From: an uncultured Gammaproteobacteria bacterium
GTDB taxonomy: Bacteria > Patescibacteriota > Patescibacteriia > UBA11705 > JABHMO01
Direction of reading: 5' to 3'
Assembly (NCBI GenBank): GCA_964605975.1
Contig: CAZSER010000001.1
Coordinates: 1-39,450 of the forward strand
DNA length: 39,450 bases
A model generated the notes under the pieces. The model saw only the letters and a list, made by a program, of their open reading frames with translations, did not search any database and was not told where the DNA came from. The translations under genes were made by a program, and so were the position numbers. This document shows, piece after piece, positions 6,786 through 34,703 of the stretch. The first letter of the stretch is position 1, and each line of letters starts with the position of its first letter.

Positions 6786-7895
6786 TTATTTGTCAAGTGA
6801 TTTTATCAATTGGTTATTTTGAAATTTTATTTTTTGGATTATTTCAAGATACCGTTCTGATGATTTTTGAGAATAATATTTTTGTAAATTAGGATTTCTC
6901 GCCATTGCCTTTAAGGATTCTAGGAGTTGTTTGTTGTCAAAAACATTGTATAACATTCCGGCGTTGTTGACCACTTCACAGTTGGCTGAGTTTGAGGCCA
7001 CAATAATTGGCAACCCAAAGCTCATTGCTTCGACTAACGGTAGGCCAAACCCTTCGTAAAAAGAGGGGAAGACAAAAAATTCTGCTTTCTCAAACTCCGC
7101 CCACAACTCTTGTTCTGAAAGGTAGTTTTTGTAAATTATTTGAGGTTTATTTTTGGTTGCGGTAAAAATTTCATCAGAACCAAATCCTGGTTTGCCTATG
7201 AGAATTAGTTTATATTTAGGAAATGATTTTATGAAATTATTAAAAACTTTAACCAAATTTAAGATGTTTTTCCTTTTTTCTATAGTCCCTACAAACAAGA
7301 TGTTTTTATTTTTTGTTTCGTTAAAAAAAAGATTATCGGTGGGGAACTCTTTTTGATTTGGATAGTGAACTGAAATTTTCTCATCTTTTAAATTATAAAA
7401 GTGAATTAAATCGTTTTTGGTGTTTTGCGAAACTGTCCAGATTTTTTGGGCATTTTGGGCTATTTTTCGAGGATTGAATAAGTAGTGCCAAAGGCGACTT
7501 TTGAACGAAAAAAAATCAGGCACAATATGAAAACTTAAATCATGAAAAACAACAAAATAGGGTAGTGAGGTTTGAAAAAAATTAAGATTTGGCAAGATTA
7601 GGCGGTCCATTTTAACTTCGGGGAAAACTTTTTTTGCCAATTTTTCGATTTTGGGACCGCAATGGAAAAATTGGCTAACTTTTAATCTTTTATTTGATAT
7701 TTGATAATGTCCAAACTTAACTCTGGGGAGTTTTGCTAACTCTTGAGGATTATAAATTTTCTTTCCAGTTGTTAGTACAAAAAAATTATGGTCGAGTGCT
7801 TGTCGGCTTAACAGTTTGAGTAAGTTAATAGTAAAAAAAGTGACGCCCGTAGGTTTTTTTTCCATTAACGGGCGTCCATCAAAGAGAAAGTTCAT
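6786..7895 (-). CDS. glycosyltransferase family 4
   Basis: YEGFGLPLVEAMSFGLPIIVASNS motif. The track ORF extends to 8081 and would overlap the upstream GT by ~200 nt. The ATG at 7895 (MNFLFDGRPL...) leaves a 17-nt overlap and is preferred. Confidence 0.85.
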   Translation of the reverse strand: MNFLFDGRPLMEKKPTGVTFFTINLLKLLSRQALDHNFFVLTTGKKIYNPQELAKLPRVKFGHYQISNKRLKVSQFFHCGPKIEKLAKKVFPEVKMDRLILPNLNFFQTSLPYFVVFHDLSFHIVPDFFSFKSRLWHYLFNPRKIAQNAQKIWTVSQNTKNDLIHFYNLKDEKISVHYPNQKEFPTDNLFFNETKNKNILFVGTIEKRKNILNLVKVFNNFIKSFPKYKLILIGKPGFGSDEIFTATKNKPQIIYKNYLSEQELWAEFEKAEFFVFPSFYEGFGLPLVEAMSFGLPIIVASNSANCEVVNNAGMLYNVFDNKQLLESLKAMARNPNLQKYYSQKSSERYLEIIQKIKFQNNQLIKSLDK

Positions 7896-8985
7896 TTTTT
7901 CGTTGTTCAATTTTTTGGAGAACAAAGTTTTTGATCTTTTCTTCAAAAATTTGACGATCAAACTTTTGGGCATGATTTTTAATGATTTCAGGGCGAAAAT
8001 CAGTTTCCTTGAATCGCAAAACTGCGTAAGCCAAAGATTCCCATGTTTGTTCATCAAAAAAATTTCCAGTTTCTCTATCAATAATTGTTTCTAATGCTCC
8101 GCCTTTTTTATAAGCGATCACCGGTCGTCCCGCGGACATTGATTCCACAGCAGTAATTCCAAAATCTTCTTGTTGAGGATTAATAAAAGCTCGTGCACGA
8201 CTTAGCAATTCAATTTTTTCTTTATCCTTTATTTTTCCTAAAAATTGAATATTGTTACGAGCCATTTTTTGTAGTTTTTTTTCTAATGGCCCGGCGCCAA
8301 AGATTTTTAATGGTAAATTTAGTCTATTAAAGGCTTGGATGATTAAATCAAATCTTTTGTAGCCAACAAATCTGCCCCCAGCCAAAAAATAGTTATCAAC
8401 TTTGCCGGTAATATGAAATTTGGAGGTGTCAACTGGCGGGTAAATTACTTGGCTTTCTCGATTGTAGTATTTCTTAATCCTTTTTTGAACTTCCAAGGAA
8501 TTGGCTAGGAAATGATCTACTCTTTCGGAAGCCAAACGATCCCACAATCTCAATTTTGTCAAAGTTAGGGGTAAAATTTTTTTCACCAAAGCATTGTGTT
8601 GGATTTCTTGTAAATATTGATGCGTATCTGTCCATAAAAATCGGGGAGGGGTGTGACAATAGCAAATATGTAAAGCCCCTGGTCGAGTAATTACTCCTTT
8701 GGAAAAGATAGAGGAGCTAGATATTATCAACTGATACTTTGATAAATCATGATGTTCCGTTGCCGAGGGCATTAGTGGTAGTAACCATTCATGTTTTTTG
8801 TTTAAAAGGGGAATATTCTGTAAAAATGATGTTTTAATTGGTTGTTTTGAAAAGTTATTAAAATGGTTTTTGTTATGTAAAAGAGTAAAAAAATCACCTT
8901 TTGGAAATATTTCCAGAAGTTCTTTGGCGACTCGTTCAGCCCCTCCGTCCTGAACCAGGTGGTCATGGACAATGGCAATTTTCAT
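7879..8985 (-). CDS. glycosyltransferase family 4
   Basis: MKIAIVHDHLVQDGGAERV N-terminus and EDFGITAVESMSAGRPVIAY C-terminal GT4 motif. First gene of the five-gene minus-strand operon. Confidence 0.9.
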   Translation of the reverse strand: MKIAIVHDHLVQDGGAERVAKELLEIFPKGDFFTLLHNKNHFNNFSKQPIKTSFLQNIPLLNKKHEWLLPLMPSATEHHDLSKYQLIISSSSIFSKGVITRPGALHICYCHTPPRFLWTDTHQYLQEIQHNALVKKILPLTLTKLRLWDRLASERVDHFLANSLEVQKRIKKYYNRESQVIYPPVDTSKFHITGKVDNYFLAGGRFVGYKRFDLIIQAFNRLNLPLKIFGAGPLEKKLQKMARNNIQFLGKIKDKEKIELLSRARAFINPQQEDFGITAVESMSAGRPVIAYKKGGALETIIDRETGNFFDEQTWESLAYAVLRFKETDFRPEIIKNHAQKFDRQIFEEKIKNFVLQKIEQRKNELSL

Positions 8986-9095: not shown

Positions 9096-10445
9096 TTAGA
9101 GAGAAATAGTTTCGGAGGCTGTTGGTCCATAAGAGATAATTCTAACTTGCAAACCGGTAATTTTCTCGATAAGTTGAATATATTGGCGAACTTCCTCGGT
9201 TAGATCATCAAAACTATTTCGAGAATTAGGACAAGTAAAAATTTGCTTTATAGGAGAGAGAGTGTGGTAATAGGGGATAACATTTAGCGTTTCTTGAGGA
9301 TTTGTTGGCCAGTAGAAAGTTGTTCCACTTTGGTCTTTTCTGCGGTAACCAATTCCAACTTTTAGTTCCGGTAATCCTACCAAAACATCCAGTTTGGTAA
9401 TTGCTAGAGAAGTAATACCAGCGACTTCACAAGCATATTTAATTTGAGGTAGGTCTAGCCAGCCACAATCTCTTGGTCTTCCGGTATTTGAACCGTACTC
9501 GTGACCGCGCTTTCTAATTTCGGCACCTATTTCATCTTCAATTTTTGTTGGAAATGGACCATTGCCAACTCTGGTGGTATAAGCTTTCATAATTCCAACA
9601 TGTTTAATCGTTGACTCTTGATGGAATAGTCCACTTCCTCCAAGTCCAGAAAAAAGTCCGGTTAAACTGGTATTGCTAGAAGTGACAAAGGGATAAGTTC
9701 CAAAATCTTTATCCAACATAACTCCATGGGCGCTTTGAATAAAGATTGTTTTTGCCCTTGAACACATTTTTATCCCACTATTAACAAAGTTATTTTCTAT
9801 AAAACCTGAATCTTGAAGCTTGTAGCCAAAAGAAATTATTGCTGGCAGTTTTTTTAGTTCTTCCTCATATTCTTGTAAAAAGTTATTATCACCAAAAGAG
9901 GAAATAATCTGTCGATAATAAGCACTGATTTTATCTGTCTTTTGGTAAAACTCTTCTGGTGACAGCCAAAAGTCAAACATTCTTGTTGCGGTATGTCGAT
10001 AGTCTTTGTCAGCATAACAAGGACCAATTCCTCGGCCGGTTGTACCAATAGTTCCCTGCGGACTATCAGCAAAAAATGTTTCTATGAGCTTATCCATTAT
10101 TTTATGCCAAGGCATAATGACATGAGCGCCACCTTGTATTATGAGCTCGGAAGGATCAATTTTTTCACCTCTAATTTCTTCAACCTCAGCAATCTCTTTT
10201 TGGAGAGTTAAGAGGTCAATAACACAACCATTTCCAACAATATTCGTGGTATTATGAAAAACGCCGACTGGCAAATGTTTCAAAACTATCTTTTTGCCTT
10301 GGAAAATAACGGTATTTCCAGCATTCGGTCCACCATTATAGCGACAACACAGATCAAAGTTTCTTCTGGCAAAAAAATAATCAACAATTTTTGCTTTTCC
10401 TTCATCGCCCCATTGGATACCGCTAGCCATAATAATTTCGCTCAT
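9096..10445 (-). CDS. purA: adenylosuccinate synthase
   Basis: QWGDEGKAKIVD P-loop region, GTTGRGIGPCYADK, and the TKLDVL guanine-specificity motif. 449 aa. Confidence 0.93.
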   Translation of the reverse strand: MSEIIMASGIQWGDEGKAKIVDYFFARRNFDLCCRYNGGPNAGNTVIFQGKKIVLKHLPVGVFHNTTNIVGNGCVIDLLTLQKEIAEVEEIRGEKIDPSELIIQGGAHVIMPWHKIMDKLIETFFADSPQGTIGTTGRGIGPCYADKDYRHTATRMFDFWLSPEEFYQKTDKISAYYRQIISSFGDNNFLQEYEEELKKLPAIISFGYKLQDSGFIENNFVNSGIKMCSRAKTIFIQSAHGVMLDKDFGTYPFVTSSNTSLTGLFSGLGGSGLFHQESTIKHVGIMKAYTTRVGNGPFPTKIEDEIGAEIRKRGHEYGSNTGRPRDCGWLDLPQIKYACEVAGITSLAITKLDVLVGLPELKVGIGYRRKDQSGTTFYWPTNPQETLNVIPYYHTLSPIKQIFTCPNSRNSFDDLTEEVRQYIQLIEKITGLQVRIISYGPTASETISL

Positions 10446-12208: not shown

Positions 12209-12568
12209 GGTTAATGACTGACGAATAAGCCGGATTCTGTTCATTTCGTCAAAAAACGAAACTCTTGATCATCTATCTGGAATCAAAATCACTTTTGACT
12301 TCTAGCGAGCTACCTAACTTGCTCTTGCACTCGGGTAAGGATTTAGCCGTTTCATTCTCAAAATTACTAATGAGATTCTTCCTTTACTTTAACTTGCGTC
12401 AAAAAAAGGAAGTTGTTTTCTTGCGAAAAGCAACGTCACTGTTCGCACCTCTATCTTGCGATTGACAGGGATTACCTGCTACCTTTTCTTCAATTTTACA
12501 AAAGAAGCGAGTGTCCGGACTTTCCTCTCCGAAATTAATCGAAGCGATCAAGTTGTCGGTCATTAACC
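12209..12568 (-). ncRNA. rnpB: RNase P RNA, bacterial type A
   Basis: Minus strand contains GAGGAAAGTCCGGAC (CR-I), GGTGCGAACAGTGAC (CR-II), CCAGATAGATGATCAAG (CR-IV) and ACAGAATCCGGCTTA (CR-V). P1 closes by pairing GGTTAATGAC at the 5' end with GTCATTAACC at the 3' end. About 360 nt. Confidence 0.92.
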
Positions 12569-12574
12569 GTTGTT

Positions 12575-12603
12575 AATATATCATTTTAACAATCTAATGT
12601 CAA
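12575..12603 (-). promoter_or_regulatory. promoter of rnpB
   Basis: Minus strand: TTGACA, 17 nt spacer, TATATT, then 6 nt to the first P1 nucleotide. Confidence 0.6.
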
Positions 12604-12610
12604 TGGTTGA

Positions 12611-12639
12611 TTGACTTTTTTAATAAGTGATGTTAAAAT
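12611..12639 (+). promoter_or_regulatory. promoter of the four-gene small-protein operon (divergent from rnpB)
   Basis: TTGACT, 17 nt spacer, TAAAAT. The predicted TSS falls after the track's ATG at 12643, which favours the SD-led ATG at 12676. Confidence 0.55.
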
Positions 12640-12675
12640 TAAATGTTCATTGAAATTTTAAGGAAGGAGCTTTCT

Positions 12676-13104
12676 ATGAAAGATCAAAAACAGTATTTTC
12701 GAGAAAGGCTTTACCGAGATATTGTCTCTAATTTTGAGGTTCTTTGTACTGTTTTTATTCGCGAAGATGGGACAAATTTCTATACGGAAAAAGAATTTTT
12801 TGAATTATTTTTTTGTTTTTTTGATGACAAGTTTATTAATATTGAATTACGAACTGCTTCTTGGCGTAGTTTTTCTGCGATTAAAGAGATTAATCGTAAA
12901 TTACAAGACTCTTGTTTTAGATTTGATTTGGAAAAAAGTCAAATTAAAAAAGCGGGAAAGCTTATCTTTGTTTGGGATTGTCTTTTTATAGACAATGAAA
13001 ATAATAAAACCAATAAAGTGGTAACCTTTTCAATCACTAGAAGAAAATTTTTTAGTGGGCGGAACTGTTTGCGTTTATTATCCAGCTATTCTCGGGAGTT
13101 TTAA
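12676..13104 (+). CDS. small orphan protein A (142 aa), Phe-rich, no TM helix or signal peptide
   Basis: AGGAAGGAG SD 6 nt upstream of the ATG. Its stop abuts the next ATG (TAAATG). No family recognised. Confidence 0.7.
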   Translation: MKDQKQYFRERLYRDIVSNFEVLCTVFIREDGTNFYTEKEFFELFFCFFDDKFINIELRTASWRSFSAIKEINRKLQDSCFRFDLEKSQIKKAGKLIFVWDCLFIDNENNKTNKVVTFSITRRKFFSGRNCLRLLSSYSREF

Positions 13105-13413
13105 ATGATTGTCAATCCTCAACTTTTTAGTTTTGCCAAGTTTTTTGTCTATTCAAAAGATGGCATACAGCAGAAAATATCAAGGGATGTCTTTGATTAT
13201 TATCGAGAATTAAGACAGGGAAAATGTTTGTTATTTACAGAAAAACCGGAAGAAATTTTTCTGCTAGCCGAAAACATTATCGAGCAAAATAGATTAAAAG
13301 CGAAAAGTTTTTCGTACCAAGTTGTTTTTGATGATGATGGGGTGCTTTTTTTTAATGGGATGAAGGTTAGTAGTTTTCATTTAGTTTTTGAAGAAACGGG
13401 AAATGAAAGATAG
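13105..13413 (+). CDS. small orphan protein B (102 aa), paralog of C
   Basis: GGGAG SD 6 nt upstream. Shares RQGKCLLFTEKPEEIF and FFNGMKVSSFHLVF motifs with protein C. Confidence 0.75.
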   Translation: MIVNPQLFSFAKFFVYSKDGIQQKISRDVFDYYRELRQGKCLLFTEKPEEIFLLAENIIEQNRLKAKSFSYQVVFDDDGVLFFNGMKVSSFHLVFEETGNER

Positions 13414-13423
13414 GAGGTGGAAG

Positions 13424-13789
13424 ATGGAAAGTCATTGTTTTAGTAACTTAATAAGCGTTTGGAACTTTTTTAATAACAACTTTTTTATTATTAATAACAA
13501 AAAAACCGAGTTGATTGTTCGCTTTGATGAGTTCCTAGATAAACTACTTTTTCGAGATGGAAGAGTGGTGCTGTTTTTCATCAGGGAAGAAGAGGAGGAA
13601 GAGTTTTGTCGGGTTCTTTCGGTTGGTCAATTAAAAATAAACTTTGATCAGTCGAGGGTAAATAAAGTTCCTGGGCATGTTTTAACTTTCTTCGGACAGG
13701 GTTCGGAGATGTTTGTTTTTTATAATGGAATAAAGGTTAAAGATTTTTCTTTGACTTTTATTTCCCAACCACCAAGGAGGAACTCATGA
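13424..13789 (+). CDS. small orphan protein C (121 aa), paralog of B
   Basis: GGAGGTGG SD 3 nt upstream of the ATG at 13424 (the track ORF starts at a TTG at 13388). Motifs RDGRVVLFFIREEEEEEF and FYNGIKVKDFSLTF. Confidence 0.7.
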   Translation: MESHCFSNLISVWNFFNNNFFIINNKKTELIVRFDEFLDKLLFRDGRVVLFFIREEEEEEFCRVLSVGQLKINFDQSRVNKVPGHVLTFFGQGSEMFVFYNGIKVKDFSLTFISQPPRRNS

Positions 13790-14157
13790 ACATTAATTTT
13801 GCGCCAGAAGGTAGTTTTTTTTATCAGCTGTTGGAATATATTATTCGAGCTTTTCCGAATGGGTTTGGAAAGGTTTATAATGAGGATATTGGAATTTTGT
13901 ATTATTTCATTATGGAGAGGAAGCAAATTCCTGTTAATATCTGGATAAAAACAAAAGATAGTTCGGAAGATTTTTATCGAGCAACCTTTGTGAGTTCGCA
14001 GGTTTATGTAGAAGATGGTGAAATAAAAATACTTTTTTTGCTTGAAAAAGGCGAACCAGTAGACATAACTTTTTCTCTTGACGGTGATGTTGTGGAGGCG
14101 TTTTGGGATGAGTTCAGTCTCGCTGATTTTCGTTTTTCAGTTAGTTCTTTTTCTTAA
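13786..14157 (+). CDS. small orphan protein D (123 aa), probable distant paralog of B and C
   Basis: AGGAGG SD 5 nt upstream. ATGA start/stop overlap with C. Motifs EDGEIKILFLLEKGE and FSLDGDVVEAFWDEFSLADFRFSV. Confidence 0.75.
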   Translation: MNINFAPEGSFFYQLLEYIIRAFPNGFGKVYNEDIGILYYFIMERKQIPVNIWIKTKDSSEDFYRATFVSSQVYVEDGEIKILFLLEKGEPVDITFSLDGDVVEAFWDEFSLADFRFSVSSFS

Positions 14158-14202
14158 TTCAAAAAAGGAGAGTCATCTTCTTTAAAATTTGTTATTTAAC
14201 GC

Positions 14203-14237
14203 AAAAGCCGACGGATAAAATTCCGTCGGCCTTTTTT
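14203..14237. terminator. bidirectional intrinsic terminator (small-protein operon / trpS)
   Basis: AAAAGCCGACGG-(8 nt)-CCGTCGGCCTTTTTT between convergent genes. Confidence 0.8.
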
Positions 14238-14254
14238 GTATAATAAAGAAAAAG

Positions 14255-21498: not shown

Positions 21499-22629
21499 AT
21501 GCGAAAAATAACGGAAGGATCTTTGGCCGTGGCGGAAATTATCAATATGTGTCGTCCTCAGGTTGTTTCTGCTTATCCAATAACGCCACAAACTCATATT
21601 GTTGAAGAGTTAGCAAAGATAAAGGCCAATGGGCAAGGATCTTTTGAATTTATTAGAGCCGAAAGTGAGTTCTCGGCGGGATCTATTGTTTTAGGCGCAA
21701 GTGCTTCCGGCGTTCGTGCTTATACGGCAACAAGCTCACAGGGGTTGCTTTATATGACGGAGGTTTTATTTACTATTTCGGGAATGCGTTTGCCATTGGT
21801 AATGACTTGTGCCAATCGAGCTATTTCGGCACCGATTAATATTTGGAATGACGAACAAGATAGCATGACCGTTCGTGATGCTGGTTGGATTATGTTGTAT
21901 GCAGAAAATAATCAGGAAGCTGTTGATTTTCATCCCATTGCCTTTAAAATTAGTGAACAGTTAAATATCCCTGTTATGGTGAATATGGATGGTTTTGTTT
22001 TGACTCATACCATTGAACCGGTTGATATGCCCGATTTGGAATTAATAAAAAATTATTTGCCAGAAAGAGTTCCCCTTGGTGGCGAGTATTTGGATGTTAA
22101 TAATCCTGTAAGTTTGGGAAGTTTAGTTACTCCTGAATATTATCAACAAATTAGACAAGATCTACATAATGATTTGGTTTCTTCACAAAAAACAGTTAAG
22201 CAAGAGATGAAAAATTATGCTCAGATTTTTGGGCGAGGTTTTGGAGAATTAGTTGAGTATTTCGGAAATCACAAGGCTTCGACAGTAATTGTTTCAAGGG
22301 GCTCTGTTTGTGGAACAATTAAGCAAGTTTTGTCCGCTTATCCTGATGTTGCTTTGGCAAGATTAAAATGTTATCGACCTTTTCCTGTCGAAGAGTTAAA
22401 AGAAAAACTAAAAAATGCCAAAAACATTATTGTTTTGGAAAAATGTTTATCTTTGGGAAAGGGAGGTCCAGTTTTTTCGGAAGTTCGAGATGTCCTATGG
22501 GGAATGAAAAATATAAAAAAAATCAGATCTTTTATTGGGGGGTTGGGAGGTCGAGATATTACCGAAAAAATGGTTATTTCCATGATCAAAAAAAGTAAAT
22601 TACCAAATGAAAAAATGATTTTATTATAA
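21499..22629 (+). CDS. porA: 2-oxoacid:ferredoxin oxidoreductase, alpha subunit
   Basis: 376 aa. N-terminus GSLAVAEIINMCRPQVVSAYPITPQTHIVEELA is typical of the alpha subunit. Confidence 0.92.
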   Translation: MRKITEGSLAVAEIINMCRPQVVSAYPITPQTHIVEELAKIKANGQGSFEFIRAESEFSAGSIVLGASASGVRAYTATSSQGLLYMTEVLFTISGMRLPLVMTCANRAISAPINIWNDEQDSMTVRDAGWIMLYAENNQEAVDFHPIAFKISEQLNIPVMVNMDGFVLTHTIEPVDMPDLELIKNYLPERVPLGGEYLDVNNPVSLGSLVTPEYYQQIRQDLHNDLVSSQKTVKQEMKNYAQIFGRGFGELVEYFGNHKASTVIVSRGSVCGTIKQVLSAYPDVALARLKCYRPFPVEELKEKLKNAKNIIVLEKCLSLGKGGPVFSEVRDVLWGMKNIKKIRSFIGGLGGRDITEKMVISMIKKSKLPNEKMILL

Positions 22630-22634
22630 AAATT

Positions 22635-25067
22635 ATGATGAGGCAAAAAACAAAAAAAATAATGTTTTTAATTTCTTTATTTGCGGTAGTGATTTCATTT
22701 TTACCATTTAATGTTGTTTTGGCGGAAGAAGAATTACCTTCTGGAATAATTAAAGAAATGGAAATAAAAATTCCTTTTGGTGATTTGCCTACAAAGCTAG
22801 GTGGTGTCGAGGTTGTTCGTTGTGATTCTGGTGAAAGTTGTCCGGCGGGAGATAAGGCGTGTGAGGCGCGTCGTCAAAAAAGTTGTGTGACAATCCCTTG
22901 GTTGGCGATGTATATTTCGGCCGCTTATAGATATGCTGTCACTCTCGGGTCATTAATTGCAGTATTAACTTTGATGATGGGTGGTGTCTTTTATATTTCT
23001 GGCAAAGAAAGTTATATCTCCAAAGGAAAAGAGATGATGGTGGGAAGTGTTACGGGTTTGGTTTTTTTGATTGGTTCTTATTCTATTTTGCATTTTATCA
23101 ATCCTGATCTTTTGAAACTAAAGGCGATAAATATAGAGATTGTTAAACAACAAGAAAATATAGCAGTTTCTTTTTGTAGCGAAATCAAGGATATTTCTAA
23201 TTATACTTTTTATGATGAAAATAGCACAGTCGTTGATGTTAAAAAATTAACTTGCGGTAAAAAATACTCTTTTATTTCCAACGATCCCAAAATAGTTAAA
23301 TCGGGTGAATGTGTAGGTGATTTCTGTTTGGATGATTCAGCTTGGTGTATGCCTACTTGTGATACGCTTGTTAGTAGTGGTTATTGTTCTGGTTCCTTGG
23401 CCTCTTCTAATTATGCATGTCACAAAGAATTTGGATTGTGGGGAATTGTCACGGGAGATCCAGAGCGTTATTTAGATCATGCTTGGGTTTATAAAAAACC
23501 ACCGGGAAACCCAATTACTTCAACTAATTTTAGTCTACTTAGTATTGATCCAGGAAAAGATACTTACATTTATGCTTTTAGTAAAGAGAAATTAGCTGAA
23601 GAGATAGAAAAAGTGAGTACGCAGGATATTGTTCTTTTAATTGAGTTGAATGATTCAACTGCTCAGGCCGTTAGTGAAGCTTATAATACGCAAGGACTTT
23701 TTGATAAAGGTTTGAAATTTGTTGCGCAAACAATAGGACCAAGTTTGGATGATGAGTATCAAGTTTTGCCTGGTGCTGGTAAAAGAATAGGCCAAACGGG
23801 GATGTTTTATTCTGAAGGAAAATGGGCAAAGGCTTGTTCAGCGGGAATTTGTGCTATTGGGACTTTTAAAGGTCCAGAATCTTATCATTTTGCCACTACG
23901 GCGATCTCGGGGGCTGATTGTAAATGGCTTGATACTTATTATTTTTCTAAAACTAGTAAAGGTATTCGTTTGGATATAAATGTAAATAATTTTAGAGAAA
24001 ATACCAAGTTAGATTGTGATTATTTTGAAAAAAACACGAAAGTTGTTGGGACAAAAGAGATTGGCAAAGCATGTTCGGATCCTGATGAATGTATAAGTGG
24101 TGATTGTGAGTCCGTGGGTGGAATTAAACAATGTGAATGCAATGAAACTTCTGACTGTTATAACCCAAAAGAAAAAGAATTAAGAGCCGGTGCTGACGCT
24201 AATTTATTGTATTGTAAGAAAGAAATATCAACATGGAATATCTGTACGAAGGGGCTATCTTATGGTATGACATGTAATACTTCTGATAGTAAACCATGTA
24301 TTGGAGATATGATTTGTCAAAATCAGGGAGGTGGGGTAGCAACTTGTGCTTGTACAATGGATAACGATTGTGTTATTTCATTGGGAAATCCATACTTGCC
24401 ACAAGGTCAAATGAACTTGGCAAAATGTCAGAATGGAAAATGTTTACAAAAAGTAGAGCCTAGACCTGTTGACTGGATGGATACTTTTGGACCAAAGGGG
24501 AAAGTGGCGCATCCGGATAATAAGTGTAAGAATAATTCTGACTGTTTTTCTGATCTTTGTGTTAATGGGGTTTGTATGTGTGACAAGAATGACCAATGTC
24601 ATTATTCTAATACTTTTTGTAATAATCCTATCTCAGAAAATGGTTTTTGTGTAAAGAAAAAAGAAGTTGGAGAGGAATGTAATGTCTTAATGCTCAGTTC
24701 TTGTGTTAAAGGATCTTCTTGTAAGATGGTAAATTTTTACAAAAATGAGCCGGCCGTCCCGAGGTGTTCTTGTGATAGTGATGAGGCATGTCCTAATGGT
24801 GAAAGATGTATAAAGCATGATCAACCGACTTGTGGCTATAATTATTGTCACAAAAGCGATCAGCAAGTTCTTACTGTAGACAAAGATTTTGATTCTACAA
24901 AGAATCCAGCATATAAAGATAAACCTTATTGGGGTTTATGTAAAGAGTTTGATGATTGTAGTGATCCTACGATGGCTCAAAATCAGAAAACAAATAAATG
25001 TTATTTGGGTGATTTGGGATGTCGAATTTGCATGACCAAAGAAACTTATAATAATTTGAATAAGTAA
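22635..25067 (+). CDS. exported cysteine-rich protein with N-terminal signal peptide, two-helix membrane hairpin and four C-terminal 8-Cys modules
   Basis: 810 aa, ~54 Cys by my count. Signal peptide IMFLISLFAVVISFLPFNVVLA/EEE. TM pair AVTLGSLIAVLTLMMGGVFYI and MMVGSVTGLVFLIGSYSILHFINPDL. C-terminal repeats of the pattern C-x3-6-C-x3-4-C-xn-C-x-C-x3-4-C. Starts 5 nt after porA and ends 13 nt before porB. Confidence 0.85.
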   Translation: MMRQKTKKIMFLISLFAVVISFLPFNVVLAEEELPSGIIKEMEIKIPFGDLPTKLGGVEVVRCDSGESCPAGDKACEARRQKSCVTIPWLAMYISAAYRYAVTLGSLIAVLTLMMGGVFYISGKESYISKGKEMMVGSVTGLVFLIGSYSILHFINPDLLKLKAINIEIVKQQENIAVSFCSEIKDISNYTFYDENSTVVDVKKLTCGKKYSFISNDPKIVKSGECVGDFCLDDSAWCMPTCDTLVSSGYCSGSLASSNYACHKEFGLWGIVTGDPERYLDHAWVYKKPPGNPITSTNFSLLSIDPGKDTYIYAFSKEKLAEEIEKVSTQDIVLLIELNDSTAQAVSEAYNTQGLFDKGLKFVAQTIGPSLDDEYQVLPGAGKRIGQTGMFYSEGKWAKACSAGICAIGTFKGPESYHFATTAISGADCKWLDTYYFSKTSKGIRLDINVNNFRENTKLDCDYFEKNTKVVGTKEIGKACSDPDECISGDCESVGGIKQCECNETSDCYNPKEKELRAGADANLLYCKKEISTWNICTKGLSYGMTCNTSDSKPCIGDMICQNQGGGVATCACTMDNDCVISLGNPYLPQGQMNLAKCQNGKCLQKVEPRPVDWMDTFGPKGKVAHPDNKCKNNSDCFSDLCVNGVCMCDKNDQCHYSNTFCNNPISENGFCVKKKEVGEECNVLMLSSCVKGSSCKMVNFYKNEPAVPRCSCDSDEACPNGERCIKHDQPTCGYNYCHKSDQQVLTVDKDFDSTKNPAYKDKPYWGLCKEFDDCSDPTMAQNQKTNKCYLGDLGCRICMTKETYNNLNK

Positions 25068-25080
25068 AACCAACCCTTTT

Positions 25081-25971
25081 ATGCCTTATAAAATGCCTTT
25101 TCGTCATTTATTAAATCCCGGTCATACGGCCTGTGCTGGTTGTGGTGAGTTATTGGCGATGCGTCATGTTTTGGAAGCGTCCGGTTCACAAACCATTGTT
25201 GCTGGGGCTACCGGTTGTGGAGAAGTGACAACCACCAAATATCCAACTTCATCATTCAAGATTCCATGGATCCATGCTAACTTCGAAAACTCGGCTCCGG
25301 TTATTTCGGGAATTTTGGCCGGTTATCGTGCCAGAGGTCAAAAACCACCGAATTTAATTGCTTGGGGTGGTGATGGCGCAACTTTTGATATTGGCTTGGG
25401 AATGTTAAGTGGCGCATGGGAGCGTGGGGACGATTTTTTGTATGTCTGTTTTGATAATGAGGCTTATATGAACACTGGGGTTCAGTCTAGTGGGTCAACA
25501 CCTTATGGTACGAACACAACAACAACACCTCCGGGAAGAAAATCGACAGGAAATAATTTGGTCAAAAAAGATATGATCAAAATTGCCTTAGCACACAATT
25601 TGCCTTATGTTGCGACGGCAACCGTGGGAAATGTTTTGGATATTCAAAATAAGGTGCGCAAAGCGCTAACATTAAAAGGCCCGAAATATATTCAAATTTT
25701 GGTTACCTGTATTCCGGGGTGGTATACCGAAGCAAAAGATACAATTAAAATTGCCAAATTGGCTTCGCAAACCGGAATTTATCCGGTGGTTGAATATATG
25801 GATGGAAAGTTAACCGGTGTTGCCAAATGTCCAAATCCCCGACCCAAAGTTGAAGAATATCTGAGGTTGCAAGGGCGTTTTAAACATCTTTTTCAGAGTG
25901 AATCAGGAGCGGAGGAACTTGCTAAAATTCAGGATTTGGCTGATCAAAATGTTGAAAGGTATGGATTATAA
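25081..25971 (+). CDS. porB: 2-oxoacid:ferredoxin oxidoreductase, beta subunit (TPP-binding)
   Basis: GHTACAGCGE N-terminal Cys cluster and GGDGATFDIG...CFDNEAYMNTG TPP-binding motif. Confidence 0.92.
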   Translation: MPYKMPFRHLLNPGHTACAGCGELLAMRHVLEASGSQTIVAGATGCGEVTTTKYPTSSFKIPWIHANFENSAPVISGILAGYRARGQKPPNLIAWGGDGATFDIGLGMLSGAWERGDDFLYVCFDNEAYMNTGVQSSGSTPYGTNTTTTPPGRKSTGNNLVKKDMIKIALAHNLPYVATATVGNVLDIQNKVRKALTLKGPKYIQILVTCIPGWYTEAKDTIKIAKLASQTGIYPVVEYMDGKLTGVAKCPNPRPKVEEYLRLQGRFKHLFQSESGAEELAKIQDLADQNVERYGL

Positions 25972-26081: not shown

Positions 26082-27059
26082 ATGGAAAATCGTAGCTCTT
26101 TTTGGGTTTCGCCGTTTTGGCAAATTTTCAGTTTCTTTTTTATTTTAATTTGTGGTTCTGCACTTTTTTTCCCTGTTGTTGTTGTTGATTTGATTACTGG
26201 GTTTTTTAGTGCCTCGTTGGTGTCTAATTTATCGATATTGTTTATTGTTGGTTTTTTTTTCAACTTTCTTTATAGTGAGTCAGTTTATTACAGAAAAATC
26301 AATCTTTTGAACGGGGTAATCTTCGGTATTATTTTTGTCTCCGTTCCCAGCATTATTGCTTTTTTGTTTGAGAATGACCTTTTTTGGATAGTTCCAGTCG
26401 TTCTGATTGCTTTGGGACTTTTTAATTTAATTCTTGTTTGTTTTTTATTAAAGCGATTTAGGGGGAGAACGCCAGATGACTACGACAGAGTTAATGATGT
26501 GATTAAAAAGGTTAGAGAAATATCAGGACTTAATTTAGAAGTTTTCTATTCTGAAATATTTGCCTACAATTCTAATAACGATTCAGTCCTTATTTCTGAT
26601 ACATGGGACTCATTCATTACCGACAAAGAACTAGAAGCTCTTCTTTTGCATGAGTTTGCTCATGCTCATAGGCGTTTTTATATCTGGGGGAGTTTTTTGT
26701 TTGAGAAGGTTTCTTATTTTATCGTTTTATTTATAGCCTTGTGGTTGGTTAATGGTTTTTTGGATAGTGGTAGATTTGAGTTGTGGTGGATGTTTTTTAT
26801 CTTTGTTAGAAGCTCATTAAATTTTTTAATAATACTGATAACCTCTTTTGTTAAAAGAATAGAGGAGTATCGTGCTGATCACTATGCTTTTCAGAAAATG
26901 GGAACAAATAAAGAAATAATAAGTTCACTTGAAAAGTTAGAAAATTCTTATTTTCAAACAGAAAAAAAGAGTCGCTGGTTTGGGAGATTTGATCTTTTTT
27001 CAGATCATCCCAAATTAGAAAAAAGAATTAGACGCCTGCGAACCTATACAATCGGATAG
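26082..27059 (+). CDS. polytopic membrane zinc metalloprotease, M48 (HtpX/Ste24-like) family
   Basis: HEFAH (HExxH) zinc site, downstream EEYRADHYA glutamate, and C-terminal [12 protein letters not shown] as in HtpX-type proteases. Several TM helices. Confidence 0.78.
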
Positions 27060-32268: not shown

Positions 32269-32637
32269 TTATTCCCACAGATTTTCACTGGTTTTATTCG
32301 CCGTGCTTGGTTCTTCTGTTGTTTCATAAACCAAAATCACATAAAACATTTCTCCATTTCTAAGGTCAATATCATGTCCCAAAATGACTTGCGAAATTAA
32401 GCCATCCACAGAGAGGTTTATTTTAAAACCTTCTTTTAAATATATTTTTCTTTTTAGTTTTTCTCCGTTTTTACATTGAACAACAACTTGTTTCTCTTGA
32501 AGTTTCCTTTTTTTTAAGTAGTCATTTAAAAGGTCAATTTTATAAATAACAGAAGATTCTTCCTGTCCAGAGAACTCCAGGACTCCCAGATTTTTGTCAA
32601 AAATGACTTTTTGTCTGGTAAACTTATAATTTGGCAT
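32269..32637 (-). CDS. hypothetical protein (122 aa), no recognised family
   Basis: GGAGG SD 7 nt upstream of the ATG, own terminator, no TM helix or signal peptide. Confidence 0.65.
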   Translation of the reverse strand: MPNYKFTRQKVIFDKNLGVLEFSGQEESSVIYKIDLLNDYLKKRKLQEKQVVVQCKNGEKLKRKIYLKEGFKINLSVDGLISQVILGHDIDLRNGEMFYVILVYETTEEPSTANKTSENLWE

Positions 32638-34327: not shown

Positions 34328-34397
34328 GGAGTTCTTTATCTTTTTGTTCTTTTAGGACTTTTCGATTTAAGTGATAAACTACTGTTTTTTTATTGTT

Positions 34398-34703
34398 ATG
34401 AAATTTTCTGTTTTGCAAAAAGAAATTTTACTTTCGTGTTATAATAGAGGTGACAAAAAAATAAATCGCCGAGTTTTTGAACTTTTTTGCCAACAAAAAA
34501 GTCATGCCAAAGAAAGTTTGCGAGTAAAAATTTTAACCCAAAGTTTGGAAAATTTAATCGAGAAAAATTTACTAATTGGTTATGGAATCAGAACTCCGAA
34601 AAAGTGGTTTTTGCAAGCCGTTTCATTAACTAAACAAGGTCATAAAATCAGCAAAAAACTTTTTTCTGAACAGTTAAAACTGAAACTTGGTTTTCGGAAG
34701 TGA
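34398..34703 (+). CDS. small basic protein (101 aa), possible winged-helix DNA-binding protein
   Basis: ATG at 34398 (the track start is a GTG at 34371). Helix-rich N-terminal part followed by a wing-like GYGIRTPKKWFLQAVSLTKQG. The family assignment is tentative. Confidence 0.55.
   Translation: MKFSVLQKEILLSCYNRGDKKINRRVFELFCQQKSHAKESLRVKILTQSLENLIEKNLLIGYGIRTPKKWFLQAVSLTKQGHKISKKLFSEQLKLKLGFRK

Follow-up and report, generated by a model that had tools for sequence, protein, structure and literature searches.

Four small orphan proteins encoded by a tightly packed operon opposite rnpB in a Patescibacteria genome

Between trpS and rnpB, the genome of an uncultured Patescibacteria (CPR) bacterium carries four small open reading frames that resemble no known protein family—raising the questions of whether they are real genes, whether they are related to one another, and what their products might do. 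We analyzed them within a 39-kb window, the whole stretch of 39,450 nucleotides, from a host for which the nearest relative sampled so far is a MAG of Ca. Falkowbacteria (67% identity of TrpRS).

The four frames, here called A to D, are packed into 12676..14157 of the plus strand and encode proteins of 142, 102, 121, and 123 aa, each behind a Shine-Dalgarno (SD) site, just as a preliminary description of the region had reported. Gene A (12676..13104, +; 142 aa) encodes a basic orphan protein (pI 9.1, charge +5.5, 14% Phe), whereas gene D (13786..14157, +; 123 aa) encodes an acidic one (pI 4.3, charge -10.5) with a marginal internal repeat. Between them lie the paralogs B (13105..13413, +; 102 aa, pI 5.4) and C (13424..13789, +; 121 aa, pI 6.7). 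The junctions are also those described earlier: the start of B abuts the stop of A (TAAATG), C follows B after a 10-nt gap with its SD site, AGGAGGTG, overlapping the B stop, and the start of D overlaps the stop of C (ATGA). In gene order, the SD sites read AAGGAAGGAG, GGGAG, AGGAGGTG, and AAGGAGG, each 4-11 nt 5' of its own ATG; such strong sites, combined with abutting or overlapping stop and start codons, would be expected to yield coupled, roughly equimolar translation. An alternative ATG for gene A at 12643, the start chosen in the NCBI record, would extend the protein to 153 aa and lies 4 nt past the -10 box of the predicted promoter. We favor the 142-aa form because AAGGAAGGAG (12660..12669, +) stands 6 nt 5' of ATG 12676, whereas no SD site precedes 12643. 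Since A and B share a reading frame, we also considered a single gene with an in-frame TAA, and dropped this reading for ordinary coupling because B carries its own SD site and an ATG right after the stop. None of the four proteins has a transmembrane helix (maximum Kyte-Doolittle 19-residue mean <1.0), and their Phe content of 12-15%, against a mean of 6% for host proteins, agrees with the earlier description of them as Phe-rich.

The operon appears to be bracketed by its own transcription signals. On the minus strand, the bacterial type A RNase P RNA gene rnpB (12210..12563; Rfam RF00010, 108.5 bits over model positions 1-367, gathering score 100) is preceded by a promoter of its own, TTGACA-17-TATATT with a TG extension (12575..12603, -; 11 of 12 consensus positions), whose -10 element stops 12 nt short of the mature rnpB 5' end. 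Because rnpB has this separate promoter, the arrangement with the operon is divergent, as had been proposed. The predicted operon promoter, TTGACT-17-TAAAAT, again with a TG extension (12611..12639, +), matches the consensus at 10 of 12 positions at the level of pattern, and the two promoters stand back-to-back with 7 nt between their -35 boxes. Transcription from it is predicted to start close to 12646. At the far end, a predicted intrinsic terminator (14207..14237, +)—a hairpin at 14207..14230 with a 9-bp stem containing 7 GC pairs, then a T-run—is placed between D and the convergent trpS. The single upstream promoter and shared terminator of the preliminary description were thus both located, at pattern level, and no strong terminator interrupts the operon: two internal terminator-like matches have 3-4 GC pairs, and as many would be expected by chance (1.5 +/- 1.2 matches). 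The four genes would accordingly be expressed from one near-consensus sigma-70-type promoter set against that of rnpB, and end at one terminator.

RNase P in archaea and eukaryotes is a multi-protein enzyme with several small subunits. With this in mind, A-D could be read as lineage-specific RNA-processing partners of the RNase P RNA, co-regulated with rnpB through the palindromic promoter region; we consider this very improbable. In the syntenic relative, a comparable type A rnpB occurs although the A-D genes are missing, and A-D resemble neither RnpA nor the archaeal subunits. RnpA (PF00825), tested as a candidate on account of the divergent rnpB, gave no match to A-D at E<=1 in Pfam/NCBIfam.

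Could the frames instead be spurious and the region non-coding? Their orphan status and low-confidence structure models would fit such a reading, but several features speak against it. Open frames of at least 100 codons arose in 1.8% of 2000 shuffles of the region, with a maximum of one per shuffle, whereas four are observed. The host codon-usage log-likelihood is positive for all four genes in the annotated frame only, and inside the host range. SD sites precede 4/4 operon genes, compared with 3 clear and 2 weak cases among the 29 other ORFs of the window (Fisher p 0.0009-0.003), which upholds the contrast with SD-less neighbors (~3-5/29) drawn in the preliminary description. In addition, the genes were called by both the NCBI and Logan gene callers, their junctions are coupled, a promoter and terminator bracket them, and the B and C proteins are similar in colinear fashion across ~85 residues. 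The spurious reading is effectively refuted, with a very small probability left to it. In GC content and GC skew, the region agrees with other plus-strand genes, so the DNA is host-like rather than freshly imported; the high regional GC skew, considered as a signature of foreign DNA, was rejected as a strand effect common to all plus-strand genes. Taken together, A-D are very probably real genes, adapted to their host and restricted to its lineage, that form one operon for four small soluble proteins; these are Phe-rich and probably beta-rich.

The four products had previously been described as divergent paralogs of one another, a claim that survives for B and C only. These two proteins (28% identity) align with a Smith-Waterman score of 57, which shuffling attained 14 times in 20000 (Gumbel p 7.6e-4). 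When 2988 background ORFs are included, each is still the best hit of the other; the motif block said to be identical at 8 of 16 positions proved to have 8 identities in 14-15. Judged from this similarity, B and C are tandem duplicates that have since diverged. D is borderline against the B/C profile (p=0.066 by shuffles, P=0.097 by hhalign) and appears to be a very remote relative at best, whereas A shows no kinship to B-D in pairwise, HMM, or profile-profile tests (against the B/C profile, p=0.46 by shuffles and P=0.33 by hhalign). Neither D nor A is among the top matches of the B/C HMM. These tests lend no support to a single A-D family, and A and D probably represent separate orphan families, or a kinship beyond detection. 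A match of A to L067 with a Smith-Waterman score of 60 was set aside as a chance match to a spurious ORF, and shows that noise in this composition reaches ~60 with the longer protein A.

The orphan status of the proteins was borne out by every search, in keeping with the earlier statement that no known family was recognized in them: scans of Pfam, NCBIfam, PADLOC, PHROGs, PDB, and viral, metagenome, and genome sequences left A-D as strict orphans. In a collection of 15 billion proteins, each of the four forms a singleton cluster; an exhaustive HMMER search of 1.84 billion representative proteins with the B/C profile matched B and C only, and word-index protein searches with C and with D returned the query itself alone. 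An identical copy of B is found on a Logan contig from SRR11845636; the contig is 963 bp long and identical to the window. Pfam and NCBIfam profiles gave nothing significant, and PADLOC defense systems and PHROGs phage families nothing at E<0.01; the best PADLOC match, A against CARF_RelE (E=0.014, 12.7 bits), is not significant. PDB sequence searches found no match, as did tblastn of A against INPHARED phages and PLSDB plasmids, and tblastn of A-D against 80 trpS-anchored loci of related genomes found nothing at E<1. The B/C motif, which the preliminary description had put forward as a search handle, was scanned for in several forms (including [LV]F[FY]NG[MI]KV), along with A and D, in genome, viral, and metagenome contigs; many pattern matches resulted, of which tblastn upheld 0 as homologs. 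Three further small orphans—a 128-aa protein beside trpS in L002 and the window ORFs at 32269..32637 and 34371..34703—are unrelated to A-D.

One explanation for such isolation is that A-D are genes of recent or de novo origin, or evolving fast, whose function is hardly fixed or not fixed at all; they would have originated in a variable intergenic slot, undergone one amplification (B to C), and be sustained in expression by fortuitously strong signals. Consistent with this are the lack of a homolog at any depth, low AlphaFold confidence, a slot of just 555 bp in the nearest relative, and a T-rich coding strand whose Phe-rich products are what AT-rich DNA would be expected to give. On the other hand, four long ORFs in a row with well-spaced canonical SD sites are hard to arrive at without selection in an SD-poor genome, and their codon usage falls within the range of established genes. 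Furthermore, orphan status may merely mirror sparse sampling and fast divergence, because the nearest relative is distant. We consider this explanation improbable. Patescibacteria are a phylum with many unknown genes (PMC10849945), and in this sense A-D are a fairly ordinary lineage-specific orphan cluster: like other ORFan clusters of the CPR, they are small proteins whose genes occupy a variable slot flanked by conserved housekeeping genes, with no homolog in 15 billion proteins. Yet membrane and secreted proteins are reportedly overrepresented in novel Patescibacteria families (PMC10849945). A-D, by contrast, are soluble and have no signal peptide, and their genes all bear strong SD sites in a genome poor in them.

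The gene order SBP-RNase J-trpS-[slot]-rnpB-sugar transferase is kept in the relatives L002, L038, L051, L052, and L056, while the content of the slot differs among them: in L002 it holds an IS200-like transposase remnant, and in L056 a bpMoxR conflict-system ATPase. No relative that was sampled has A-D, not even at the syntenic locus of Falkowbacteria, and they thus cannot represent a conserved core function; a core housekeeping role is unlikely. The operon's neighbors are housekeeping genes. The trpS-rnpB slot may host different accessory, mobile, or conflict genes across relatives.

The transposase remnant in L002, together with the small, tightly packed character of the orphans and their strong SD sites, would suit remnant cargo of a phage or mobile element (a moron or an anti-defense set), and the ATGA and TAAATG junctions typical of type II toxin-antitoxin operons would suit a TA-like pair of pairs, A-B and C-D. 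We regard both forms of this explanation as quite unlikely. Viral contigs, INPHARED phages, PLSDB plasmids, PHROGs, and PADLOC yielded no match, the composition of the cluster is host-like, and neither an integrase nor att-like sequences or flanking repeats were found at it; a search of the flanks for direct or inverted repeats that an insertion might have left behind returned low-complexity matches only. Type II toxin-antitoxin operons do resemble this one in their small genes, junctions, constitutive promoter, and pairing of an acidic with a basic member. They differ in having two genes rather than four, Pfam, NCBIfam, and PADLOC recognize no toxin or antitoxin domain in A-D, and the paralogs B and C would straddle both putative pairs, holding non-equivalent places in them.

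We tentatively favor, at rather less than even confidence, an accessory, conflict-type role, in which A-D are an immunity- or antidote-like set of small binding proteins; this role is the most likely because the slot varies in relatives and because the products are small, cytoplasmic, and non-enzymatic, with one strongly acidic member and one that was duplicated recently. Under this proposal, they would be a heterogeneous, constitutively made set that neutralizes proteins delivered by neighbors, hosts, or mobile elements. Two comparable architectures have been described: polyimmunity loci of heterogeneous content in which no toxin is linked (PMC3482391), and strings in which immunity paralogs such as EsaG stand in tandem and diverge (PMC9484751). 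Like those loci, which consist of tandem, small (100-150 aa), cytoplasmic, non-enzymatic proteins, A-D are tandem, small (102-142 aa), and cytoplasmic, without transmembrane helix or signal peptide. The likeness extends to the presence, side by side, of unrelated families and of paralogs that were duplicated locally and diverge fast (here B/C), to the possible lack of a linked toxin, and to the strongly acidic D with its weak match to Imm40. Selective pressure for immunity is plausible, since hosts use secreted Esx effectors against Patescibacteria epibionts (PMC13622651). There are also differences: for Imm, SUKH, and all other immunity families, A-D stay below the threshold; genes for a toxin, a secretion system, or a recombinase are absent from the vicinity; a single operon with translational coupling holds the four genes amid housekeeping surroundings; and Patescibacteria are not a phylum in which such loci have been characterized.

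The match to Imm40 (Pfam PF15569) was obtained for D only, at 17.6 bits (E=0.0059, ~0.006) over residues 38-79, below the Pfam gathering cut-off of 25 bits; A, B, and C gave no match to this family. According to Zhang et al. 2012 (PMC3482391), GGD, F, and W motifs are conserved in Imm40. D is without the GGD, and has EDGE at 75-78, LDGD at 97-100, and W at 53 and 107. Nor did the association with an Ntox19-type toxin required for Imm40 emerge, as no toxin domain was found in ORFs of at least 100 aa across the 39-kb window. The sub-threshold match and the acidity of D (pI 4.3) are counted in favor of immunity; the failure of family membership, with a score under 25 bits and the missing GGD, counts against it. 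Also on that side are a window free of toxin, secretion-system, integrase, phage, and mobile genes—extending the earlier remark that no toxin or mobile gene is adjacent—the lack of anything significant in PADLOC/PHROGs, and the lack of flanking repeats to mark an insertion.

Nearly as likely as the immunity-type set is a co-translated hetero-oligomer, a possible though still doubtful reading in which A-D are subunits of one small, lineage-specific cytoplasmic assembly unrelated to conflict: B would pair pseudo-symmetrically with C, the basic A and the acidic D would be partners, and coupling would fix the stoichiometry. This assembly and the immunity/antidote array are the two roles that the preliminary description had proposed. 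The abutting or overlapping junctions, the uniformly strong SD site on every cistron, the single promoter and terminator, the complementary charges of A (+5.5) and D (-10.5), the duplicated pair, the host-like codon usage, and the housekeeping neighborhood are all consistent with such an assembly. It is harder to reconcile with the absence of the cluster from every sampled relative, and operon coupling is also common in toxin-antitoxin and immunity loci. Tight translational coupling suits a stoichiometric complex no less than independent immunity proteins.

Predicted structures, whose comparison by Foldseek had been suggested at the outset, were of low confidence. The AlphaFold2 models for B (with C) and for D by itself attained pLDDT values of 44 and 51.4, and had no match at E<0.1 in the PDB; the best matches, to PH-like, lectin, and NTF2-like folds, had TM scores of 0.2-0.3 and were dismissed as noise. 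At pLDDT 44 and 51, the models are too poor for any fold assignment.

If A-D are immunity-like, they would add new immunity families and offer an initial clue to the way in which epibiotic Patescibacteria with reduced genomes resist protein effectors of hosts or competitors; if they form a complex, they would be a lineage-specific small-protein machine. Known from a single genome and lacking orthologs, the operon does not open any long-standing question to a direct test. It mainly illustrates that strict orphans can bear every hallmark of real genes, and that here, in a CPR genome where SD sites are scarce, the strong ones are concentrated on an accessory orphan operon.

Four small plus-strand genes adjoining rnpB form a constitutively signalled, translationally coupled operon of real genes that encode small, soluble orphan proteins. 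Genes A (12676..13104, 142 aa), B (13105..13413, 102 aa), C (13424..13789, 121 aa), and D (13786..14157, 123 aa) meet in TAAATG at the A/B junction and ATGA at the C/D junction, while a 10-nt gap separates B from C and the SD of C overlaps the TAG of B. Each start is preceded at canonical spacing by an SD site (AAGGAAGGAG, GGGAG, AGGAGGTG, and AAGGAGG, in order). The operon promoter-like site (12611..12639, plus strand; TTGACT-17-TAAAAT with a TG extension) lies 7 nt from that of rnpB on the opposite strand (12603..12575; TTGACA-17-TATATT)—the better of the two, with a -10 box correctly placed for the mature 5' end of rnpB (12210..12563, minus strand; Rfam RF00010, 108.5 bits, full model). A terminator (14207..14237; 9-bp hairpin with 7 GC pairs and a T-run) ends the operon, facing convergent trpS. 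The preliminary description had given this anatomy, and all of it was borne out: rnpB, ORFs, junctions, SDs, promoter, and terminator. An imperfect 17-nt inverted repeat (82%; 12575..12591 and 12631..12647) runs across both extended -10 regions, such that the control region is roughly palindromic about position 12611. That the four proteins are lineage-specific partners of the neighboring RNase P RNA is scarcely credible.

Public (NCBI) models instead start A at ATG 12643 (153 aa) and C at ATG 13403 (128 aa, versus 13424 here). Both upstream ATGs lack an SD, and 12643 lies no more than 4 nt from the -10 box; as transcription is predicted to start near 12646, A would begin at the SD-preceded ATG 12676, with 12643 less likely. 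The SD-preceded starts of both A (142 aa) and C (121 aa) look more likely than the NCBI ones.

Several lines of evidence indicate that these are real genes. Under a codon-usage model built from 19 long window genes, per-codon log-likelihood ratios of A–D were 0.11–0.26 (0.16–0.37 for established genes), positive in the annotated frame only and negative in all five alternatives. An open frame of at least 100 codons arose in 1.8% of 2000 region shuffles and never more than once per shuffle, whereas the real region holds four consecutively on one strand. Judged from window ORFs of at least 100 aa (among them 9096..10445, 26082..27059, and 32269..32637), the genome is SD-poor: outside the operon, a clear SD precedes only 3 of 29 ORFs—purA, an M48 peptidase, and a 122-aa orphan—a contrast with A–D that is significant (Fisher p 0.0009; 0.003 with lenient counting). 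The orphan (32269..32637) carries GGAGGT, and operon-internal genes at 22635, 25081, 35439, and 37062 also lack an SD. GC content and GC skew match those of other plus-strand genes and thus give no sign of recently imported DNA. Together, these observations make spurious ORFs very improbable. A mobile-element or toxin–antitoxin (TA) remnant is also unlikely; tblastn of A against phages and plasmids returned no match.

The genes had been proposed to be four divergent paralogs, a claim that holds for B and C only. They align with a Smith-Waterman score of 57, whereas shuffles averaged 30 and 14 of 20000 scored as high (Gumbel p 7.6e-4). About 85 residues align colinearly, global identity is 28%, and, with 2988 ORFs of this genome and related ones as background, each is the other's best hit. 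B and C are thus tandem duplicates and the sole demonstrably related pair. Against a profile built from B and C, the C-terminal half of D aligned colinearly, which is plausible yet not significant (p=0.066 by shuffling; P=0.097 by hhalign), A showed no detectable relationship (p=0.46), and neither ranked with the best matches to the B/C HMM. The short ‘DG-hydrophobic-acidic’ motifs previously noted as common to the proteins do not establish homology and may instead reflect similar beta-hairpin architecture. D also contains a marginal internal repeat (residues 28–46 and 70–88; 13867..13924 and 13993..14050, plus strand; KVYNEDIGILYYFIMERK vs QVYVEDGEIKILFLLEKG); 9 of 300 shuffles equalled its self-alignment, and at the DNA level a 25-nt repeat is 72% identical.

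In a collection of about 15 billion proteins, each of the four forms a cluster of its own, with two start variants for C. Word-indexed protein searches with C and D each recovered only the query, and an exhaustive HMMER search of 1.84 billion representatives with the B/C profile found B and C alone. Pattern and tblastn scans of GTDB genomes, IMG/VR, and JGI metagenomes yielded no confirmed match, and Pfam, NCBIfam, PADLOC, PHROGs, and PDB sequence searches nothing significant. An identical 963-bp contig without variants occurs in SRR11845636, indicating that the organism was sampled twice. The only lead from these searches was D against Imm40 (E=0.0059; 17.6 bits, under the cut-off of 25), and the GGD motif given for Imm40 is absent from D (PMC3482391). 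AlphaFold2 models of B with C (pLDDT 44) and of D (pLDDT 51; a helix, about seven strands, and a C-terminal helix) were of low confidence, gave no Foldseek match below E=0.1, and support no fold assignment. That A–D are young genes with little function seems doubtful.

Apart from the operon, the AT-rich window (33.5% GC) carries housekeeping genes of the kind expected in a bacterium with a reduced genome: glycosyltransferases, purA, a Bac_transf sugar transferase, trpS, RNase J, a family-5 solute-binding protein (SBP), POR subunits, uvrA, rplS, gmk, rluD-like, asnS/aspS-like, scpA/scpB, and a D-Ala-D-Ala carboxypeptidase. A comparison of its TrpRS with 185,579 species-representative genomes gave the best match in a Candidatus Falkowbacteria MAG (67% identity), followed by Moranbacteria, Uhrbacteria, and other Patescibacteria, which places the organism in a sparsely sampled part of the Patescibacteria (CPR).

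Several Patescibacteria lineages keep the order SBP, RNase J, trpS, slot, rnpB, sugar transferase while the content of the slot varies. Occupied here by the operon (12564..14254), it is nearly empty in L052 (8527..8576) and holds an IS200-like Y1 transposase remnant and a 90-aa orphan in the Falkowbacteria locus L002 (10973..11526; 555 bp), small ORFs in L051 (4562..5893; about 1.3 kb), a class II aaRS-like paralog and a 380-aa ORF in L038 (10985..13437), and about 4.8 kb including a bpMoxR ATPase of MoxR-vWA conflict systems in L056 (10988..16046). With rnpB inverted relative to L002 and no tblastn match to A–D in any of 80 related trpS-anchored loci, this variability points to an accessory, recombination-prone slot and a lineage-specific operon. 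Where RNase J and trpS are separated by only some 140 bp in the window, L002 has a 128-aa orphan ORF (9237..9623, minus strand) with neither a Pfam match nor similarity to A–D.

We tentatively favor a role for A–D as an accessory, conflict-type module, in which a heterogeneous set would act as immunity/antidote-like binding proteins. This reading draws on the variability of the slot and on the nature of the products, which are small, soluble (no TM segment; maximum KD19 <1.0), and non-enzymatic, with one acidic member, one diverging duplicate, and a weak Imm40 hint in D, together with described polyimmunity loci that lack a toxin (PMC3482391, PMC9484751) and host-secreted effectors that target Patescibacteria (PMC13622651). 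Translational coupling and charge complementarity (pI 9.1, 5.4, 6.7, and 4.3 for A to D) could alternatively reflect one co-translated hetero-oligomer, a possible if less probable arrangement. All four proteins are rich in Phe (12–15%, versus a mean of 6%). Clusters of orphan small proteins are common in Patescibacteria (PMC10849945), and this one, a taxonomically restricted and perhaps immunity-like orphan operon, is well formed and unremarkable save for its SD contrast and divergent pairing with rnpB.

Elsewhere in the window, an 810-aa ORF (22635..25067, plus strand) with a signal-peptide-like N-terminus and no Pfam match separates POR alpha (21499..22629) from POR beta/TPP (25081..25971), an odd insertion into the pyruvate:ferredoxin oxidoreductase operon. 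Two small ORFs (32269..32637, minus strand, 122 aa; 34371..34703, plus strand, 110 aa) have neither a Pfam match nor similarity to A–D. Finally, adjacent GT4 glycosyltransferase ORFs (6786..8081 and 7879..8985, minus strand) overlap by ~200 nt as listed, and the downstream one probably starts later than its listed TTG.
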